NCBI RefSeq assembly: GCF_003334255.1
Contig: NZ_QOWU01000065.1
Direction: 5' to 3' (one strand)
Source: Escherichia coli
GTDB lineage: Bacteria; Pseudomonadota; Gammaproteobacteria; Enterobacterales; Enterobacteriaceae
DNA: 23,863 bases
This document shows, one piece after another, positions 1-8,726 of this stretch (positions are counted from its first letter, which is position 1; each line of letters begins with the position of its first letter). A program made the translations under genes and the position numbers. The notes under the pieces are model-generated. The model was not told the DNA's origin and made no database searches. It was given only the letters and a program-made list of their open reading frames with translations.

Positions 1-89
1 CTCCGTCTAATTTAGAAGGAGCTCTAATTTAGTCTGCAAGGAGCAGGTGTTACAGACGGCATTGGCTTTACGCTTACAGTTATTACTGA

Positions 90-338
90 AACTACAACAA
101 CATTATCACTATCTTGTTGGGCATCAGCAAGCGAGGCAACAAGAAGATACGAACCTTGCTGGTTCAGTGCGCCAGAGTATTTATACAAAAACTGGAACAC
201 CAGTCAGGCAGGTTGGCCGACTGGGTCCGGGAGTTACTGTGCCGGAAAAGTAACTTTGTCGTGACTTGCGCTCTGGCAAACAAGCTGGCCAGAATAGCCT
301 GGGCACTAACAACACGGCAGCAAACTTACGAAGCATAG
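90..338 (+). pseudogene. IS110-family transposase, 3'-terminal remnant (last ~75 codons only)
   Basis: Translation ...LLGISKRGNKKIRTLLVQCARV...FVVTCALANKLARIAWALTTRQQTYEA matches the conserved C-terminal region of IS110-family transposases. The same frame has a stop at 87-89 and no other frame upstream looks transposase-like, so only the 3' end of the gene is present. Confidence 0.5.
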
Positions 339-595
339 TGAGAGTTATATCTGTTTAAACAATCACTCATCTGGTTTTGCGGATACTGATTATTGATGAT
401 ACGAACGGCCCACCGGCCTGTTGAGGAACCTGTGAAACGGAAAGGCTCATTGAAGCCGTATATTTTCTTGAGGTTCATCAGGCGCGGAACTCATCGAGGC
501 GCGGGAATAAAATCCCATTCAGACGCCGGATAGATTCAAGCAAGCCCACTTATCGTCAAAATCGGTGTTGCAAAAACGGGAGTGACCATAGAGTC

Positions 596-625
596 CGTTT
601 CCCAAACCGCCGTTTCCCAAACCGC
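596..625. repeat. Perfect tandem duplication of a 15-bp unit (cgtttcccaaaccgc x2)
   Basis: Units at 596-610 and 611-625 are identical by direct reading. Confidence 0.9.
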
Positions 626-630
626 CCCCT

Positions 631-668
631 AAAAAACAAGCCGATGATCGTATTTAGCGATCATCGGC
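631..668 (-). terminator. Rho-independent terminator of the minus-strand MFS gene
   Basis: Perfect 11-bp inverted repeat gccgatgatcg / cgatcatcggc (640-650 and 658-668, loop tatttag). On the minus strand it is followed by ttgtttttt (plus-strand A-run 631-636). It lies 14 bp past the stop codon at 682-684. Confidence 0.75.
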
Positions 669-681
669 ATTGTGGTGAAAC

Positions 682-2115
682 TTAATCAGAATAACGTTCG
701 GTTTGAATTGGCTGCAGTTTTTTTCTGCGTTTTGCTAACACTACGCTCTCCATTTTCTCCAGCGAAATGCCTTTTGTTTCCGGCAGGTAACGGCAGATAA
801 AGAAGTAACTGAAGATGCAGCAGATGGCGAATATCCACATTGGAAATGCGCCGTGGAAATGCGAAAGTAAATACGGGTTTTCATTAATCATCGGGAAGAA
901 TTGCGAAACTAAAAAGTTTGCCATCCACATAAATCCGACCGAAATACTCATTCCCTGCGACCTCATCCGGTTAGGGAATATTTCAGAAATAAGCACCCAT
1001 GCACCCACGCCCCAGGAAAGCGCGTAGAAAATCATAAAGAACAGCATACCGAATAGCGCGAAATAACCGGTTGCCTGGCTGTACAGCGCCCATGAGGTGA
1101 GCAACAAGCCGATGATGCTGCCAATAGTGCCTTTACGCATCAGCGACAAACGCCCCATCTTATCCATAATCATTGCGCCAATAATGGAACCGATAAGCTG
1201 AATCACGCCGATCCAGATTGTCTGGAACAGGGCCTCCTGGGCGCTATCGGTCACATCCTTAAGGACGATTGGCGCGTAATACATCATGACGTTAACCCCT
1301 GTTACCTGTTGCAGTATAGCGATCATGCAGCCCAGAATCAGGATGAAACGCACGTTCCCGTCGCGGTAATTAAGTTTTTGATGGGCGTTTAGTTGGTCGT
1401 TTTGCAGTGAGGTTTTTATATCGGCAAGAAGATGTCTGGCATGTTCTTCGTTGGATATTTTGGTCAGTATTTTTAGCGTCTCCTCCTCGCGACCAATCAT
1501 CATCATCCAGCGGGGAGATTCCGGGATTAAAAAGACTAAAATACAGAACAAAATGCAGGGAATAATACCCGCAGCAAACATATAGCGCCAGCCAAGTTCA
1601 ATGAGCCAGGTATCCGCTGCAATCGATGCTATTTTGTAGTTAACGTAGAAGATCAGAATCTGACCGAAAACGATAGCAAACTGCTGCATACTTAATGCTC
1701 TGCCGCGCATGTTTTTCGGTGAGACTTCAGACATATACATCGGTGATACTGTTGCCGCCAGGCCGACTGCCAGTCCACCGATAATGCGATAAATCACAAA
1801 ATGGGTGAACGTGTAGGAGAGGGAGGTGCCCACTGCGGAAATAGTGAATAACAGCGCTGAAACCATCAATGATTTCTTGCGTCCAAAACGTTTGGATAAA
1901 TATCCGGCGCTAAACGAACCAATAACGCACCCCACCACAACGCAGGAAACCGCCCAGCCGATCTCAGCAGGAGATAGATGAAAGTAGCTGGTCAGTGAAC
2001 CAATCGCACCTGAAATAACAGCAGTATCGTAGCCAAATAATATTCCGCCCAGTGCGGCAATCGCGCAGATGCGTAATATGTAACCCGTATTATAACGACT
2101 ATTTGATGTGAACAT
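682..2115 (-). CDS. iolT1: MFS sugar-porter family transporter, myo-inositol:H+ symporter type (IolT-like), 477 aa
   Basis: Long ORF with sugar-porter hallmarks (GxLFGYD..., paired 6-TM halves, PESPRW, PETKG). Start moved to the internal ATG at 2113-2115 (MFTSNSRY...), which has a GGAG about 10 nt upstream and gives the same length as the paralog; the ORF-track start at 2175 has no SD. The paralog number is inferred from gene order and is uncertain. Confidence 0.8.
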   Translation of the reverse strand: MFTSNSRYNTGYILRICAIAALGGILFGYDTAVISGAIGSLTSYFHLSPAEIGWAVSCVVVGCVIGSFSAGYLSKRFGRKKSLMVSALLFTISAVGTSLSYTFTHFVIYRIIGGLAVGLAATVSPMYMSEVSPKNMRGRALSMQQFAIVFGQILIFYVNYKIASIAADTWLIELGWRYMFAAGIIPCILFCILVFLIPESPRWMMMIGREEETLKILTKISNEEHARHLLADIKTSLQNDQLNAHQKLNYRDGNVRFILILGCMIAILQQVTGVNVMMYYAPIVLKDVTDSAQEALFQTIWIGVIQLIGSIIGAMIMDKMGRLSLMRKGTIGSIIGLLLTSWALYSQATGYFALFGMLFFMIFYALSWGVGAWVLISEIFPNRMRSQGMSISVGFMWMANFLVSQFFPMINENPYLLSHFHGAFPMWIFAICCIFSYFFICRYLPETKGISLEKMESVVLAKRRKKLQPIQTERYSD

Positions 2116-2585
2116 AGGTAGATTATCTCCAGAATAAACTTCATCTATATCTATCTGTTTGAATTTAGTGAACAAATAGACAAAGACAAATTCATCTTCT
2201 GTCGGTCATTGCCGTAGCTCTGCCGACGATCTTATAGCTATTGAGAACTCTTGTTTCACAACCTATGTTTTAATTTCAAAACGTTCAATAATGAAACTTG
2301 TGTTTTGTTATGGGTGTCACATTTCGAATTTCATAATCCTGGCGTTTTTTATCGTTAAGATGCTGCGTTTTGCGCAGCACCCTCCTGTATCTTGATGAAT
2401 TTAATTGATTTTATTGCTTTCGTGACAGTGCCTGAACTCAATTTGTCAGGGGCTGTACTTTTTGTTCTTTCCTGGAACATCTCCATTTCGTGAACTTTTG
2501 CATGGAATTTTTCTTCTAATGAATGCAAAAATAAAATGAATAATTTCATTAGTGTGTTGTTTCCTCAACAGGCAAGGGAGGGATT
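2116..2585. promoter_or_regulatory. AT-rich divergent intergenic region carrying the promoters of both iolT-like genes
   Basis: About 470 bp with no convincing ORF between divergently oriented transporter genes; contains a short hairpin tgctgcg-ttttg-cgcagca near 2373-2391. The 64-aa ORF at 2355..2549 is judged spurious. Confidence 0.5.
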
Positions 2586-4022
2586 ATGTCTCAGAGAAGT
2601 AAGTACAATTCGGCCTATGTGTACGTCCTGTGTTGTATTGCGGCGCTGGCTGGATTGATGTTTGGTTATTCAACGGCGGTGATTACCGGGGTAGTATTGC
2701 CTTTACAGCAGTATTACCAACTGACGCCAACCGAGACCGGATGGGCCGTTTCCAGTATCGTGATTGGTTGTATCATCGGCGCGCTGGTCGGTGGAAAAAT
2801 TGCCGATAAACTGGGGCGTAAACCTGCGCTTCTGATCATTGCGATCATTTTTATCGCTTCTTCCTTAGGGGCGGCGATGAGTGAATCGTTCATGATCTTC
2901 TCCCTTTCCCGCATTGTGTGTGGTTTTGCGGTTGGGATGGCCGGAACGGCATCCACCATGTATATGTCTGAACTGGCGCCTGCTGAAATTCGCGGCAAAG
3001 CGCTGGGCATTTACAATATTTCCGTGGTATCTGGCCAGGTTATCGTGTTTATAGTCAACTATCTGATAGCAAAAGGAATGCCTGCTGATGTGTTGGTTTC
3101 CCAGGGCTGGAAGACTATGCTTTTTGCCCAAGTGGTACCCTCCATTGCGATGTTAGCGATTACGCTTTTCCTACCCGAATCACCGGCATGGTGCGCCCGT
3201 AACAACCGCAGCGAAGCCCGTTCGATAAAGGTGCTTACCCGGATCTACAGTGGATTAACGGCCACAGATGTGGCCGCTATTTTTGACAGCATGAAAGAAA
3301 CCGTACGTCCACAGGACAACGTCGCCGGGGGAGAACGCACCAACCTGAAAAGCTCGCCGGTGCTCCGCTATATTCTGTTGGTTGGATGCTGTATCGCCGT
3401 TTTGCAACAGTTCACAGGCGTTAACGTAATGAACTATTATGCGCCGCTGGTGTTGCAGAACAGCAGTACCGAAGTGGTTATGTTCCAGACCATTTTTATC
3501 GCGGTATGTAATGTGGTGGGCAGTTTTATCGGCATGATCCTGTTCGACCGCTATGGCCGTATACCGATTATGAAAATTGGTACCATCGGCTCAATTGTCG
3601 GCCTGTTGATCGCGTCATACGGTTTGTACACCCATGATACAGGCTACATTACCATCTTTGGCATCCTGTTTTTTATGCTGCTGTTTGCCGTCAGCTGGAG
3701 CGTTGGCGCATGGGTACTGATTTCTGAGGTTTTCCCTGAAAAGATAAAAGGTTTTGGGATGGGGCTGGCGGTGAGTCTGATGTGGATAGCCAACTTCCTC
3801 ATCTCACTGTTGTTCCCGGTCATAAATGATAACGCCTGGCTGCAGGAGACCTTCGGCGGCGCTTTCTCGATGTGGATTTTTGTCGTCTTTAATTTGGTCT
3901 GCTATATCTTTATTTCTCGTTATGTGCCGGAAACAAAAGGGGTGCCGCTAACAGAAATTGAACGGCTGGCCGAGAACAAGCTGCGTGAAATTCAGGGGAA
4001 ACGTCGCGATGTAATAGCCTGA
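2586..4022 (+). CDS. iolT2: MFS sugar-porter family transporter, myo-inositol:H+ symporter type (IolT-like), 478 aa
   Basis: ATG at 2586 preceded by aagggaggg; sugar-porter motifs (GLMFGY, PESPAW, PETKG); paralogous to the 682..2115 gene. Paralog number inferred from gene order. Confidence 0.8.
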   Translation: MSQRSKYNSAYVYVLCCIAALAGLMFGYSTAVITGVVLPLQQYYQLTPTETGWAVSSIVIGCIIGALVGGKIADKLGRKPALLIIAIIFIASSLGAAMSESFMIFSLSRIVCGFAVGMAGTASTMYMSELAPAEIRGKALGIYNISVVSGQVIVFIVNYLIAKGMPADVLVSQGWKTMLFAQVVPSIAMLAITLFLPESPAWCARNNRSEARSIKVLTRIYSGLTATDVAAIFDSMKETVRPQDNVAGGERTNLKSSPVLRYILLVGCCIAVLQQFTGVNVMNYYAPLVLQNSSTEVVMFQTIFIAVCNVVGSFIGMILFDRYGRIPIMKIGTIGSIVGLLIASYGLYTHDTGYITIFGILFFMLLFAVSWSVGAWVLISEVFPEKIKGFGMGLAVSLMWIANFLISLLFPVINDNAWLQETFGGAFSMWIFVVFNLVCYIFISRYVPETKGVPLTEIERLAENKLREIQGKRRDVIA

Positions 4023-4037
4023 TACCTCTCCAATATT

Positions 4038-4067
4038 AGCGGAGAATATCCAGAGATATTCTCCGCT
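4038..4067 (+). other. Perfect 12-bp-arm stem-loop 16 bp downstream of iolT2 (possible terminator or protein-binding palindrome)
   Basis: agcggagaatat / atattctccgct with 6-nt loop ccagag; not followed by a U-tract. Confidence 0.4.
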
Positions 4068-4333
4068 GGTTACACAACCTTTACTCCCTCCAGCGAGTGC
4101 GCACAGGATATACCCTGTTGAAACCTCCCCAGTGTTTACCACCTCTATGTAACTAATTGATCCATAATAATATCGGCAAATAGGGTAAGTCTTCTTCTGC
4201 ATCATTATTTTATTGCGTATTCCTGGTGGGGGCCGTGCCGTAAATACGCTATATACAAAACAGGGAAATAATTTTAGAGAAGGTGGATAGCGATCTTATG
4301 AGCGTGTGTGGCGCAGAGTTGAATAATAAATAT

Positions 4334-4357
4334 CCTCCGGCATAGCCGGAGGTTTTT
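4334..4357. terminator. Canonical hairpin plus T-tract, possibly the pre-existing bidirectional terminator between the convergent iolT2 and iolB
   Basis: cctccggc-ata-gccggagg (8-bp perfect stem) followed by ttttt on the plus strand; an A/T-rich run also precedes it. It sits at the inferred right end of the IS200 copy. Confidence 0.5.
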
Positions 4358-4433
4358 CTGATGCGCCTGTAAGGCTCTCTTACCAGCCGCGTCCTAACAG
4401 GCGCATACGATCTGACATTTGCATCAAACTTCG

Positions 4434-4865
4434 TTACTTACGGCCCGTAAACGGGCTGCCCGTTTTATCCTCTTCAAGCTGGTGCTTTATGTATTCCCGT
4501 ATCTTCGCCGTGTTCTTACCCACCGTATCGACATAGTACCCTCTGCACCAGAACTCCCTGTTCCTGTATTTGAATTTTAGATCCCCAAACTGCTCGTAAA
4601 GCATCAGACTACTTTTACCCTTCAGATACCCCATGAAGCTCGACACACTCATCTTCGGCGGGATCTCCAGAAGCATGTGAATATGATCTGCACAACATTC
4701 CGCTTCCAGAATTCGTACGTTTTTCCATTCACACAATTTTCTTAATATGCTGCCTACTGCCCTACGCTTCTCTCCATAGAACGCTTGTCTTCGGTATTTG
4801 GGCGCGAAAACTATGTGATATTTACAGTTCCATCGGGTGTGCGCTAAGCTCTTTTCGTCCCCCAT
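4434..4865 (-). CDS. tnpA: IS200 transposase TnpA (HUH Y1 transposase), 143 aa as encoded here
   Basis: MGDEKSLAHTRWNCKYHIVFAPKYRRQ...ADHIHMLLEIPP...RGYYVDTVG, i.e. the HxH motif and catalytic Tyr region of IS200 TnpA. Start placed at the ATG at 4863-4865 (SD aaggggg); the ORF-track start at 4916 is a TTG in the 5' UTR. Confidence 0.9.
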   Translation of the reverse strand: MGDEKSLAHTRWNCKYHIVFAPKYRRQAFYGEKRRAVGSILRKLCEWKNVRILEAECCADHIHMLLEIPPKMSVSSFMGYLKGKSSLMLYEQFGDLKFKYRNREFWCRGYYVDTVGKNTAKIREYIKHQLEEDKTGSPFTGRK

Positions 4866-5007
4866 TGGGACCCCCTTTTGATTTCTTGTTGAACTTTTGC
4901 AGTTGCCAGACCGCAAGATGTTTTAACAAATCAAAAGGGGTTTTAATAACTGGCTTAAAGCTGAAAGCTTTCCGGCCCCCCCAGCCTAGCTGGGGGGGGG
5001 CATAGAC

Positions 5008-5036
5008 AAAAAAGCCAGCCGCAGAGGACGGCTGGC
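5008..5036 (-). terminator. Hairpin plus U-tract at the IS200 left end; also serves as terminator for iolB read-through
   Basis: On the minus strand gccagccg-tcctctg-cggctggc is followed by tttttt; it lies 22 bp downstream of the iolB stop at 5058-5060. Confidence 0.7.
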
Positions 5037-5057
5037 AAAGTACCACTCAACGAAGTG

Positions 5058-5867
5058 TTATCGCGGGTAGTCTGGTGAGTTAATCCACGCGTGGTTCTCT
5101 TCCCAGGTGAAACGCCATTTTCGTAGCGGGCCGGCCATCACGTTCAGATAGTAGTTATCGTAACCCGCGATGGTGGCAACCGGGTGGTAGCCTTTAGGTA
5201 CTTTCACTACATCCCGGTTATAGACCGCCATACATTCATCCAGGCTGCGATCGTCGGTGTAGACGCGCTGTAAGCAGAATCCCTGAGGTGGATTGAAACG
5301 GTGATAGTATGTCTCTTCCAGATAGGTCTCCTGGCCTTCAACTGCCGTATCGTGCTTGTGTGCGGGCCAGGAGCTGGTATCGCCTTCATTAGTGTACACT
5401 TCAACGACTAGCAGGCTGTCGGCGAGCTGGCTATCAGGAAGGATGTTATGCACCAGGCGCTGATTGCGCCCTTTTCCCCGATGCTCTACCCCGACCTCTT
5501 GTGGCGAGATCAGACGTACTGGAAGCTCTCCGAATCCCGGCGCGCTGCATACGGCCAGCTCAAGGTCGGTTTCGGCTGTCACTTTCGCCTCCGTATGATG
5601 GGGGAGGTAAACCGAATAAGCTGGAATGCGTTCAAACGGACTCATGCGCTGACCAATCCGATAGAAAAAACTGTCGGCGGCCTTAACGCTGGCCAGCCCG
5701 GCAACCAGCACCAGACAGCGTTCACGCTCATCGGACGGCAGGGTTATCGACTCTCCAGCCTTCAACTGCCAGACATCAAAACCGACATACTCCCAGCCTG
5801 CATTTTGAGGGGAAATGTGTTGGATATTTCCCGACTCAGAGGTACAGGTACTCAGCAAGTTGGCCAT
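5058..5867 (-). CDS. iolB: 5-deoxy-glucuronate isomerase IolB
   Basis: 269 aa; the C-terminal half (HRGKG...VHNILPDS...LLVVEVYT...HKHD...YLEETYYH...QRVYTDDRS...YYLNVMAGP) aligns with Bacillus IolB; SD aggag upstream; 24 bp after the iolA stop. Confidence 0.85.
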   Translation of the reverse strand: MANLLSTCTSESGNIQHISPQNAGWEYVGFDVWQLKAGESITLPSDERERCLVLVAGLASVKAADSFFYRIGQRMSPFERIPAYSVYLPHHTEAKVTAETDLELAVCSAPGFGELPVRLISPQEVGVEHRGKGRNQRLVHNILPDSQLADSLLVVEVYTNEGDTSSWPAHKHDTAVEGQETYLEETYYHRFNPPQGFCLQRVYTDDRSLDECMAVYNRDVVKVPKGYHPVATIAGYDNYYLNVMAGPLRKWRFTWEENHAWINSPDYPR

Positions 5868-5891
5868 AATCTTCTCCTTCCTGAAAGCGTA

Positions 5892-7397
5892 TTAACCGAG
5901 AGTTGGCATACTGAACTCCGATACGATCTGCTGTCCGTTCGGCCAACGCGAGGTAACGGTTTTCATCCGGGTATAGAAGCGCACGCCATCCGGCCCATGG
6001 ACGTTCAGGGCGCCAAACACCGAGCGCTTCCAGCCGCCAAAAGAGTGAAATGCCATCGGAACCGGAACTGGAATATTAATACCGACCATCCCGGCTTCAA
6101 CCGACTGGGCGAATTCGCGCGCATAGTGACCGTTGGTGGTGAAAATCACGCTGCCGTTGCCGAATTCATGGGAGTTTACCGTGCTAATGGCGGTGGCATA
6201 ATCCGGGACGCGCACAATTCCGAGAACCGGGCCAAAAATTTCTTCACGCCAGATGGTCATCTCAGGCGTGACGTTATCAAACAGAGTGCCGCCGACATAA
6301 AAGCCTTCAGGATATCCCGCCACGCTATAGTTGCGGCCATCCATGACCAGAGTTGCTCCCTCGCTAACCCCTTTGTCGATGTAACCCAACACTTTCTGTT
6401 GATGAGCACGTGAAACAACCGGGCCCATTTCATTTTCATCTTTGCCGCGCAGCTCTCCCGGGCCGATACGTAGCGCCGCAATCAGCGGTTTCAGGCGTTC
6501 GATCAGACGGTCCGCCGTTTCATCGCCCACCGCGACCACTACCGGCAGCGCCATACAGCGTTCGCCCGCGGAACCAAATGCTCCGCCCATAATGGCGTTG
6601 ACGGTGGCGTCCAGATCTGCATCCGGCATGACGATTGCGTGATTTTTGGCGGCCCCGAAGGCCTGTACGCGTTTGCCATGGGCGCTGGCGGTGGTATAGA
6701 TATGTTCCGCGACGGCGGAGGAACCGACAAAGCTGACGGCCTGTACGCGAGGGTCGCTGGTCAACAGGCTAGCCGCCTCATTGCCACAGTGAACAACGTT
6801 AAACACGCCGTCCGGCAGGCCAGCCTCCTGCAGAAGCTGCGCCATACGTAACGATGCGGACGGCACCAGTGCGGGCGGCTTCAGGACGAAGGTATTGCCG
6901 CAAGCCAGAGCAACCGGGAACATCCACATAGGCACCATTGCCGGGAAGTTAAACGGTGTGATGCCTGCCACAACCCCAAGCGGCTGCATTAATGAAAAGC
7001 TGTCAACGCCTGAGCCGACGTTAAAGGAGTACTCTCCTTTGCTGAGATGCGGGATCCCGCAGGCAAATTCGACAACCTCTATGCCGCGCGTCAGTTCGCC
7101 AAGCGCATCTGACCAGACCTTGCCATGCTCGCTGACGATCAGCGCCGCCAGTTCGTCCCGATGCTTTTCCAGTAATACTTTGAATTCAAAAAGGATACGT
7201 GCCCGGCGTAGCGGAGTCATTTTACTCCATGCCGGAAAAGCCTCATGTGCGCTTTGAATTGCCGCCAGCATCTCCTCTCGGGTGCTCTGGGTGACCTGAC
7301 GAATTACTTTACCGGTGGCCGGATTAGCCACCGGTAGCGTCTCGCCGCTGCTGCTCAGTGTCGTTTTACCATGAATAAAATTGCCGACTGTTTCCAT
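5892..7397 (-). CDS. iolA: Methylmalonate-semialdehyde dehydrogenase (CoA-acylating) IolA, aldehyde dehydrogenase family
   Basis: 501-aa ORF with aldehyde-dehydrogenase architecture; first gene of the iolA-iolB pair; SD aagagga upstream of the ATG. Confidence 0.85.
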   Translation of the reverse strand: METVGNFIHGKTTLSSSGETLPVANPATGKVIRQVTQSTREEMLAAIQSAHEAFPAWSKMTPLRRARILFEFKVLLEKHRDELAALIVSEHGKVWSDALGELTRGIEVVEFACGIPHLSKGEYSFNVGSGVDSFSLMQPLGVVAGITPFNFPAMVPMWMFPVALACGNTFVLKPPALVPSASLRMAQLLQEAGLPDGVFNVVHCGNEAASLLTSDPRVQAVSFVGSSAVAEHIYTTASAHGKRVQAFGAAKNHAIVMPDADLDATVNAIMGGAFGSAGERCMALPVVVAVGDETADRLIERLKPLIAALRIGPGELRGKDENEMGPVVSRAHQQKVLGYIDKGVSEGATLVMDGRNYSVAGYPEGFYVGGTLFDNVTPEMTIWREEIFGPVLGIVRVPDYATAISTVNSHEFGNGSVIFTTNGHYAREFAQSVEAGMVGINIPVPVPMAFHSFGGWKRSVFGALNVHGPDGVRFYTRMKTVTSRWPNGQQIVSEFSMPTLG

Positions 7398-7786
7398 CTC
7401 TTTTTTATCCTCTTAAACCGATGTTGACGACGTTCTGACTGAGCGGTCACAGGAAAGCCTGGTTATCTTCAGCCTAAAACGCATACCGTATTCAATGTAA
7501 ATTTTAGGATTAAAAATTTCAAATCTATTTTTATGAAATTTTATTTTGAAAATTTGACGACTGATTTTTATACGAGGGTATGTGCAGTAAGAAATCAAAA
7601 ATCCAATTAACTTATTGATTTTTATTGTTTTTATTTGGTGTGATATCAATGGTTGTTTGTTGTGATGAGGAAAGATTTGGAAAAAATTATGATCTATATA
7701 GCATTTTTGTTTCATTTGGTGTAGTATAAAAATTCAAATTTCAGGGGTGTTTCGGCACCACAGTTTCGGATATTGGAGGGTAAATC
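7398..7786. promoter_or_regulatory. AT-rich divergent promoter region between iolA and reiD
   Basis: About 390 bp of AT-rich non-coding DNA between divergent genes. Direct repeats atttggtgt(g/a)(a/g)tat at 7634-7647 and 7714-7727, and gtttcgg at 7749-7755 and 7763-7769 just upstream of the reiD SD (ggaggg, 7773-7778). Confidence 0.5.
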
Positions 7787-8656
7787 ATGCGCTTGTGCTT
7801 CTGTCCTTCAGAACGAGAGAATAAGCCCCAGTTGGCGTATGTGAGTCAGGTCAGTGAGAGCAATGGTCCGTATGTCCGGTTCATGCATATGCACCCACAG
7901 ACCGTTGAACTGATTCTTATCACCGAAGGAGACGGGGAGTATTTCATTGGCGATCGCATCTACCCGGTTCGTAAAGGCGACCTGGTCATTTATAACAGCC
8001 AGGTGGTGCATGATGAGTATCTGGAAAGCGGGCGGCCAATTGGCACTATTTGTTGTGGGATTAACAATATTTCGTGTCCGGGTCTACGTGAGAATGCGCT
8101 AATACCGGATGATATTGTGCCGGTTATTCCACTGTATCACCATTATGCGACGGTGGAAAAACTGATGAGCTCCGTGTTTACCGTTATTAATCAGCATGCG
8201 GTGGAAGGGCCAGCAATGGCGCAGCTATTGACCCAGGTAGTACTCAAATACATTGAGGGAAATGTCTTATTGCGCACAGGTAACGATGCCATACAGCGCC
8301 ATGAAAATTTACTTGATTCAATAAAATCCTATATTGATCGCAATTTCTATGAGCCAATTCGGCTGGATACACTGGCGACGAAATTTAATGTCAGTCCTTA
8401 TTATGTTTCCCATGAATTTAAACGCCGCTATGGTTATTCACCGATGGATTACCTGATAAAACGTAGGCTGGGGGAGGCTCAATCGTTACTAACCACGGAT
8501 AAAGGCGGGCGCGAAAAGATCACCTCTATTGCCTATCGTGTTGGCTTTAGCAACCTTAGTCATTTTCAGAATTACTTCAAAAATAAAGTGGGGAAAACAC
8601 CCGGTCAATATCGCAAGGACTATCGTAAAGCTAATTATTTATTATTTGAATATTAA
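7787..8656 (+). CDS. reiD: AraC/XylS-family transcriptional activator with N-terminal cupin-like domain (ReiD-like)
   Basis: 289 aa; C-terminal tandem helix-turn-helix typical of AraC regulators (...SPYYVSHEFKRRYGYSPMDYLIKRRLGEAQ...IAYRVGFSNLSHFQNYFK...). Position between iolA and iolE matches the described island layout. Confidence 0.75.
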   Translation: MRLCFCPSERENKPQLAYVSQVSESNGPYVRFMHMHPQTVELILITEGDGEYFIGDRIYPVRKGDLVIYNSQVVHDEYLESGRPIGTICCGINNISCPGLRENALIPDDIVPVIPLYHHYATVEKLMSSVFTVINQHAVEGPAMAQLLTQVVLKYIEGNVLLRTGNDAIQRHENLLDSIKSYIDRNFYEPIRLDTLATKFNVSPYYVSHEFKRRYGYSPMDYLIKRRLGEAQSLLTTDKGGREKITSIAYRVGFSNLSHFQNYFKNKVGKTPGQYRKDYRKANYLLFEY

Positions 8657-8683
8657 TGCTTGCTAAAATTTAATCGTCATGAG

Positions 8684-8715
8684 AATGGTCGCAATACTGC
8701 GGCCATTTTTTATTG
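8684..8715 (+). terminator. Rho-independent terminator of reiD
   Basis: aatggtcgca-atac-tgcggccatt (10-bp stem with one G-U pair) followed by tttttatt; 28 bp after the reiD stop. Confidence 0.7.
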
Positions 8716-8726
8716 TTATTCCTAAA

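Follow-up and report, generated by a model that had tools for sequence, protein, structure and literature searches.

Has the myo-inositol (iol) island on Escherichia coli contig NZ_QOWU01000065.1 lost its repressor gene, iolR? The 23,863-nucleotide stretch that we analyzed (the window) opens with mobile-element debris ahead of the myo-inositol transporter gene iolT1. A sequence-only reading of this left edge reported the end of an IS110-type transposase, a perfect 15-bp tandem repeat and no gene for the RpiR-type repressor IolR, and it left open whether iolR lies beyond the edge or has been altered or removed by a rearrangement. Our comparison with related loci indicates that the left edge is very probably a scar made of three layers of mobile elements in the gap between the tail-to-tail genes iolR and iolT1, with iolR located beyond an IS66 element. 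The coordinates of all features are collected in Table 1.

Location of iolR

The window itself contains no iolR, as the sequence-only reading had stated. A tblastn comparison of IolR with the whole window returns only noise (E > 1), and the sole regulator found there is the AraC-type protein ReiD. An RpiR-type repressor with HTH_6 and SIS domains is absent next to iolT1 inside the window and present just outside it in matching contigs. All ten loci recovered by an exact IolT1 look-up carry iolT1, a full 334-aa IS110-family transposase gene and a 277-aa HTH_6/SIS protein (IolR), and five of them match the window at 100% identity from 114 to 2200. In 11/11 related E. coli loci, iolR is followed by the IS110-family element and then by iolT1. 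In these related loci iolT1 is convergent with iolR, and in Mangrovibacter, whose IolR is 90% identical, the two genes lie tail to tail with no insertion sequence (IS) between them.

The connection between the window and iolR was predicted before it was found. Given the 8-bp duplication that a plasmid copy of the same IS66 element shows (see below), the other junction of the IS66 element should encode transposase residues 1-178 followed by VSVNGAPY, and exactly this protein was found; the collection searched contains the 186-aa sequence in 60 blocks. Two contigs, L087 (NCBI GCA_043676895.1, a 52-kb contig) and L089, match window positions 1-7563 at 99.987% identity, without gaps and with one mismatch, and carry the window's IS66 junction, deletion and 15-bp duplication. 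They span the whole IS66 element from iolR to iolA in the order iolR, left part of a miniature element, 5' half of the IS110-family element, AGTTATTA, the 2,541-bp IS66 element and window 1-7563. Their IolR is intact (277 aa) and identical to that of the relatives, and the iolR stop codon lies 3,281 bp to the left of window position 1. In L087, the stop codons of iolR and iolT1 are 3,962 bp apart. Together with the order in the 11 relatives, these two contigs bear out the suggestion that iolR lies beyond the window edge. Two metagenome contigs (L085 and L086) also link the deletion junction to the iolT1 flank and include ~750 bp more of the IS66 element, and partner contigs from the same two samples carry iolR, the 5' half of the IS and the IS66 tnpC gene. 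The junctions between elements, their order and the intact iolR gene are direct observations in the matching contigs, and the window's own genome can be inferred to have the L087/L089 arrangement.

Several observations weigh against this picture. Because the window stops inside the IS66 element, its own left flank is out of view, and the match to L087 and L089 includes one mismatch in 7.5 kb. In L088 (GCA_001299315.1, CYUC01000053.1; positions 7427-19103), iolR, the 5' half of the IS and the IS66 element are followed by unrelated genes (a short-chain dehydrogenase, an acyl carrier protein, a FabA-like protein and a ketosynthase) instead of the IS relic and iolT1, which implies a further IS66-associated rearrangement that separated iolR from the iol genes in that genome. 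Two short metagenome contigs (L026, positions 1370-1460, and L029, positions 1474-1527) have the composite of IS66 and deleted IS joined to other right flanks. In one case the flank is another Tn3-type inverted repeat, with plasmid-like surroundings that include ParE and a resolvase, and in the other the composite is truncated at window position 571. Either could reflect recombination between IS copies, mobilization in trans or chimeric assembly. Finally, two scans of the GTDB species-representative genomes, which include one genome per species, returned no Salmonella locus.

The hidden left flank and the rearrangement in L088 are also what would favor an IS66-mediated deletion or inversion that removed or displaced iolR in the window's genome and made iol expression constitutive. 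We regard this as quite improbable. In both L087 and L089, iolR and window 1-7563 occur on one contig at nearly complete identity, and both metagenomes with the window's structure include a partner contig with an intact iolR at the other IS66 junction. The gene is intact even in L088. Moreover, IolR is trans-acting, and moving its gene elsewhere would not by itself relieve repression of the island. The predicted de-repression of iol expression thus finds no support, given the intact iolR in the matching contigs. An IS-mediated rearrangement did occur here, in the form of the IS66 insertion and a 218-bp deletion, but what it destroyed is the transposase of the older IS and not iolR. With the layered scar as the preferred reading, iolR is not expected to be deleted and the island should be regulated normally. 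That iolR seems to be missing would reflect a contig break at a repeated IS66 element rather than a regulatory loss, and there is no de-repression phenotype to infer.

The IS66 end and its target duplication

Window positions 1-77 end in ...GGCTTTACGCTTAC, the reverse complement of the IS66-type inverted repeat GTAAGCGTAAAGCC, and the terminal ...CGCTTAC corresponds to IS66-type GTAAGCG on the opposite strand. The tnpA, tnpB and tnpC genes of this element lie further left on the minus strand, and the full element in L087 (2,541 bp) has the ends, the three genes and the 8-bp duplication that define the IS66 family. Its left junction in L087 reads ...CAGCCAGTTATTA joined directly to GTAAGCG, and the uninterrupted site CTCAGCCAGTTATTACTG is present in 11/11 relatives. 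A plasmid copy of the same IS66 element is flanked by a different 8-bp target duplication, CGGCACTG. Nothing similar to window 1-77 occurs in the related iolT1 loci compared, and the IS66 junction is absent from all 11 of the related loci. An apparent IS66 insertion within the same IS in pFORC69-type plasmids, suggested by a match to window positions 1-102, was rejected as a chance extension into an AT-rich flank.

An IS5075/IS4321-like element with a truncated transposase

The IS66 element interrupts an older element of the IS1111 group of the IS110 family, of which the window retains the last 74 transposase codons, the 3' non-coding region and the right end. Positions 77-123 align to the full transposase gene 218 bp upstream of where the alignment of position 114 onward begins, which indicates a 218-bp internal deletion. 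This deletion occurred at a TTGTTG microhomology (114-119) and shifts the reading frame, so that the mid-gene fragment is out of frame with the last 74 codons. The C-terminal fragment of ~75 codons described in the sequence-only reading is real, and its reading frame covers positions 272-342 of the 343-position profile for NCBIfam family NF033542 (IS110 family RNA-guided transposase). Its assignment to 90-338 contains transposase sequence, but the start was misplaced, since 1-77 belong to IS66 and 78-119 are out-of-frame codons from the middle of the gene. Over this retained end, the window is 100% identical to related loci in which the 334-aa gene is complete. The full protein has an N-terminal PF01548 domain (DEDD_Tnp_IS110) and a C-terminal PF02371 domain (Transposase_20), of which the window keeps only the C-terminal 74 codons; its transposase copy is predicted from these lesions to be a non-functional remnant.

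The ends of the older element were placed by the IS1111-family rule and by comparison of independent plasmid copies. IS1111 elements have 11-13-bp sub-terminal repeats with extensions of 7 bp on the left and 3 bp on the right (PMC11187229). The 12-bp repeat at the right end is followed by the 3-bp extension AGA, and in full copies its partner ATGGTCACTCCC begins 7 bp inside the left end (extension TAATGAG), which gives an element of 1,326 bp. Homology among independent copies stops at the same right end (window 592). Compared with a RefSeq copy annotated as IS5075 family (1,327 bp, also located in a Tn3-type inverted repeat), the element is 97.3% identical in protein sequence and 90.5% identical in nucleotide sequence, and the latter value makes it a sister element and not IS5075 itself.

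The sequence-only reading had asked whether the same relic is present in reference strains. The IS does occupy this position in all E. coli-type islands examined, which indicates that it is ancestral to the island, but the IS66 junction and the deletion are found in none of the 11 relatives. The 218-bp deletion is likewise absent from the complete RefSeq E. coli genomes examined, and neither it nor the composite of IS66 and deleted IS occurs in PLSDB or in complete E. coli genomes. An exact search for the double junction in the GTDB representatives gave no match. A look-up of the 74-aa relic open reading frame (ORF) recovered only short contigs with other, frameshifted copies, and the 68-aa chimeric ORF that contains both junctions occurs in 16 short contigs, none of which extends past the IS66 element.

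Could the junctions at 77/78 and 113/114 be assembly chimeras, with a full IS at the real iol locus and the interrupted copy on a plasmid? Plasmid copies of the IS do not differ from the window over positions 114-592 (479 bp), and the right part of the composite has other flanks in short metagenome contigs. In addition, both window ends fall ~75-77 bp inside IS66-type ends, as expected of a short-read contig, and this suggests that the window is one such contig in its entirety. However, four independent assemblies (L085, L086, L087 and L089) have the same linkage, two of them (L087 and L089) cross the whole IS66 element from iolR to iolA, and the IS66 element is flanked on each side by the 8-bp target duplication that a true insertion should leave. 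An assembly artifact is therefore extremely improbable.

A miniature Tn3-type element as the target

The sequences around independent copies of the older IS define its target. Each copy is preceded by ...GTACAATATT or ...CTTAGCGTGGGATATT and followed by ~22 bp of the form (G/T)TCCGTTT(C/T)CCAA..CCCC, after which unrelated DNA begins. Combined, these flanks form a Tn3-family inverted repeat of 38 bp (GGGG...TAAG). The junctions are the same at more than 8 independent sites, where 16 bp of the repeat lie to the left of the IS and 22 bp to its right. One IS copy abuts an annotated Tn3-family tnpA gene. Insertion is site- and orientation-specific within a 38-bp Tn3/Tn21-type repeat and occurs without target duplication, and uninterrupted targets were recovered. 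Insertion into the 38-bp inverted repeat of Tn3-family transposons is known behavior of IS4321 and IS5075.

At the iol locus, this repeat is the right end of a 232-bp miniature element, whose inverted partner (GGGAGCGGTTTGGGAAACGG...) begins 8 bp after the iolR stop codon in the relatives. Uninterrupted miniature elements read ...CCGTACAATATT followed directly by GTTCGTTTCCCAAAC... across the insertion point and contain a single copy of the 15-mer that is repeated in the window. These elements (85-92% identical) occur in 367/5,426 complete E. coli genomes at 663 places, 652 of them on plasmids, and 0/663 are annotated. A candidate interpretation of the palindrome around the IS as a bidirectional iolR/iolT1 terminator was rejected; its arms are the two 38-bp repeats of this multi-copy element.

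The spacer is variable among strains. Two E. coli chromosomes (L006 and L009) lack 43 bp of the left inverted repeat (GGGAGCGGTTTGGGAA followed by CTAACG...) and have a single 15-mer, and L001 has the full left inverted repeat with one 15-mer. These differences imply at least three haplotypes of the iolR-iolT1 spacer.

The 15-bp tandem repeat

The perfect 2 x 15-bp repeat seen in the sequence-only reading is confirmed by Tandem Repeats Finder (595-626, 2.1 copies, 100% match); its placement at 596-625 describes the same array, shifted by one base. About 2e-5 perfect tandem duplications of 15 bp are expected by chance in 23.9 kb. Two copies are present in the window, L002-5, L007, L008 and L010, and one copy in L001, L006, L009 and L037 (E. 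coli M24). Since copy number varies among strains with the same island, the repeat is a strain-variable duplication of inverted-repeat sequence. A single 15-mer occurs at every other insertion site of the IS and in every uninterrupted miniature element. The duplication most likely arose by replication slippage at a 2-bp CC microhomology. The possibility that the 15-mer is the end of the IS itself was rejected, because the 15-mer varies between insertion sites and the IS is constant.

A functional or mechanistic role for the repeat, as an IS target duplication, a binding site for a protein such as IolR or a footprint of guide-RNA-directed recombination, is scarcely credible even though the repeat is perfect far beyond chance, abuts the right end of the IS and holds the half-site CCGTTTC matched by a putative guide RNA (see below). 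IS1111-type elements do not duplicate their target (PMC11187229), and the two copies are found together on one side of the IS. A single copy is present at every other insertion site and in the uninterrupted elements, E. coli strains with the same island and full IS have either one copy or two, and the site is downstream of both convergent genes and away from any promoter. The repeat is not a target duplication, nor is it a regulatory site, and it has no evident function.

A putative seekRNA downstream of the transposase

The 340 bp that follow the transposase fragment are not plain non-coding DNA, as the sequence-only reading had described them. Positions 339-592 are part of the IS, namely its 3' non-coding region together with its right end, and are no mere spacer, and positions 593-629 belong to the inverted repeat of the miniature element. 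In IS1111 elements, the region downstream of tnp encodes a seekRNA that selects the target, with the top-strand guide located 5' of the bottom-strand guide (PMC11187229). A putative seekRNA core at ~420-485 could form a stem (GGAACC/GGUUC) with an apical hairpin (GGCU-CAUUGA-AGCC). A putative top-strand guide, GAAACGGAAA, near 438-447 is complementary to TTTCCGTTTC on the top strand of the target, and a putative bottom-strand guide, AUAUUUUC, near 460-467 is identical to ATATTTTC of the target and could pair with its bottom strand. The two guide matches overlap at the insertion point, with the top-strand guide 5' of the bottom-strand guide. The fold of the whole region (339-592, 254 nt) is unusually stable (z = -3.47; 0/200 shuffles fold as well).

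Three results count against this assignment. The local fold of the core is unremarkable (z = -1.26), an Rfam scan of window positions 1-2600 found no family at E <= 1, and covariation between guide and target in this IS and IS5075-like variants is not clean and was not used as evidence. Given the modest local fold and these other two results, the seekRNA is best treated as a candidate.

Proposed history

We infer the following order of events from how the elements are nested. A 232-bp Tn3-derived miniature element would first have inserted between the iolR stop codon and the iolT1 terminator. A 1,326-bp IS5075/IS4321-like element would then have entered the fixed position in its right inverted repeat, presumably guided by the putative seekRNA and without target duplication. 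Both convergent genes end before this older IS, which is thus downstream of each. Later, in the lineage of the window, a 2,541-bp IS66 element would have inserted at transposase codon ~176-178 with an 8-bp duplication (AGTTATTA). The 218-bp deletion at the TTGTTG microhomology, with loss of codons ~190-260, would have been a separate event. The left boundary of the window falls within the IS66 end, 77 bp from its tip, and what can be seen of the older IS is therefore its dead 3' portion, in which the putative guide-RNA region and right end are intact.

One consequence of this structure is speculative. The split element (~3.65 kb, from the left end and 5' tnp through IS66 to the deleted 3' tnp, the intact putative seekRNA region and the right end) might be a non-autonomous IS1111-type element that still moves in trans by means of the transposase of sister copies on plasmids and takes the whole IS66 as cargo into other Tn3-type repeats. 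We consider this unlikely, but if true it would account for the different inverted-repeat flanks next to the right part in L026 and L029, and repeated attempts at the iol site, directed by the guide RNA, could have left the 15-bp duplication behind.

Table 1. Features of the left edge of the window and gene content of the island
Feature	Position	Strand	Details
IS66-family element end, terminal 77 bp, orfA-proximal	1-77	minus	100% identical to annotated IS66 ends adjoining tnpA/tnpB/tnpC in E. coli
Right copy of the 8-bp IS66 target-site duplication, AGTTATTA	78-85	.	left copy at the other junction in L087
IS5075/IS4321-like element, 3' part	78-592		cut by IS66; 218-bp internal deletion
Mid-gene transposase fragment, residues about 176-189 (...QLLLKLQQHYHYLV)	78-119	plus	~13 codons; ends in TTGTTG microhomology 114-119
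Last 74 codons and stop of predicted IS110-family (IS1111 group) transposase	114-338	plus	NF033542, E = 2e-15
IS 3' non-coding region	339-577	plus	identical in all copies of this IS
Right end: 12-bp sub-terminal inverted repeat GGGAGTGACCAT (578-589) and AGA (590-592)	578-592	plus
Outer 22 bp of right 38-bp Tn3-type inverted repeat (GTCCGTTTCCCAAACCGCCCCC) and 15-bp duplication	593-629	.	232-bp miniature element
Perfect tandem duplication, 2 x CCGTTTCCCAAACCG	595-624	.	units 595-609 and 610-624
iolT1 intrinsic terminator	640-668	minus	GCCGATGATCG-CTAAATA-CGATCATCGGC, then TTGTTTTTT
iolT1	682-2115	minus	477 aa, myo-inositol transporter of the major facilitator superfamily (MFS); sugar-porter family matches; identical gene is iolT1 in RefSeq
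Island genes	window		iolT1, iolT2, iolB, iolA, AraC-type regulator (ReiD), iolE, iolG1 (family scans)
Island genes, continued	window		GH30 SrfJ-like, iolI, MFS gene, iolC, iolD, iolG2, another MFS gene
Mobile genes among the iol genes	window		IS200 tnpA and IS91 pseudogene

The myo-inositol island

The large ORFs of the window were assigned by family scans and form a myo-inositol utilization island (Table 1). Positions 77-23863 are 99.9% identical to seven complete E. coli chromosomes, in which the same genes carry RefSeq annotation, and the window is by these matches the E. coli (ED1a-type) version of the island. The iol genes are found in <2% of E. coli genomes, and the ED1a-type island is nearly colinear with that of Salmonella and lacks iolI2 and iolH (PMC9430895). 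A search of the GTDB representatives with an IolT1 peptide pattern recovered Serratia, Yersinia, Mangrovibacter and others at <=84% identity and no Salmonella. The iolT terminator named in the sequence-only reading holds up as an intrinsic terminator with an 11-bp stem and a T-run, located 14 bp downstream of the iolT1 stop codon.

Other mobile sequences are scattered through the island. An apparently intact IS200/IS605 tnpA gene (4434-4916, minus strand) lies between iolT2 and iolB, and the gap from reiD to iolE holds a frameshifted IS200 relic (about 8836-9257, plus strand). A transposase pseudogene of the IS91 family (15123-16310, minus strand) is split by an internal stop. At its right edge (23789-23863), the window enters another IS66-type element, distinct from the one on the left, and includes ~75 bp of its beginning (GTAAGCGTACAGCC...). 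The tnpA gene of that element in E. coli M24 begins 18 bp beyond the position of the window end, and iolI2 and iolH are absent there. Upstream of iolR in the same strain (L037, positions 1-11236) are a TOTE conflict-system primase/helicase gene, an Rpn-family nuclease gene, an N6-methylase pseudogene and a truncated epmB. The presence of these genes upstream of iolR in E. coli islands indicates that the iol genes are part of a larger mosaic genomic island.

Comparison with known systems

The window represents a rare E. coli version of the inositol island rather than a Salmonella locus, as its best matches are E. coli chromosomes. It has the same gene set and order as the S. Typhimurium GEI4417/4436 island, from iolT1 to an STM4434-like MFS gene and including reiD and srfJ, and in that island iolR (STM4417) is adjacent and convergent to iolT1 (STM4418), like the order in the E. 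coli-type loci (PMC9430895). The E. coli-type copy differs from GEI4417/4436 in its additional IS200, IS91, IS110-family and IS66 elements and in the lack of iolI2 and iolH (PMC9430895).

Each layer of the scar has known counterparts. The miniature element resembles Tn3-derived inverted-repeat miniature elements (TIMEs) and miniature inverted-repeat transposable elements (MITEs), which are likewise ~230 bp long, have 38-bp Tn3-type repeats and no coding capacity, and occur in many copies mostly on plasmids; the 5-bp target duplication expected by this comparison is ambiguous here because both flanks are A-runs. The IS66 element matches ISEc47/ISEc8-like members of its family in its GTAAGCG ends, tnpA-tnpB-tnpC genes (as laid out in L087 and L036), 8-bp duplication and 2,541-bp length and has no notable difference from them, with 77 bp of it inside the window.

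The non-coding region downstream of tnp is a feature shared with IS1111/IS110 elements that use seekRNAs or bridge RNAs (ISEc11, ISKpn4 and ISPa11; Siddiquee et al. 2024, PMC11187229). The putative guides are in the same order as in these elements, with the top-strand match 5' of the bottom-strand match, as judged here from sequence alone. The window differs from these systems in that its putative guide region survives without its transposase.

The older IS is most similar to IS5075 and IS4321. Like them, it has a 334-aa DEDD-type transposase, a length of 1,326 bp (compared with 1,327 bp), 12-bp sub-terminal repeats with 7-bp and 3-bp extensions and a long non-coding region downstream of tnp, and its insertions share a single position and orientation within a 38-bp inverted repeat (GGGG...TAAG), with no duplication of the target. 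It differs from IS5075 in that its target at the iol locus is the repeat of a 232-bp miniature element, not that of a full Tn21-type transposon, and in that the window copy is dead, split by IS66 and by the 218-bp deletion. In annotation, 339-592 and the 15-bp repeat should be labeled as IS and miniature-element sequence. The locus offers a clear natural case in which an IS5075-like IS of the guide-RNA type occupies the repeat of a chromosomal miniature Tn3-type element and was itself later inactivated by IS66, and the scar is of well-known kinds that are already described and leave current knowledge of these systems unchallenged.

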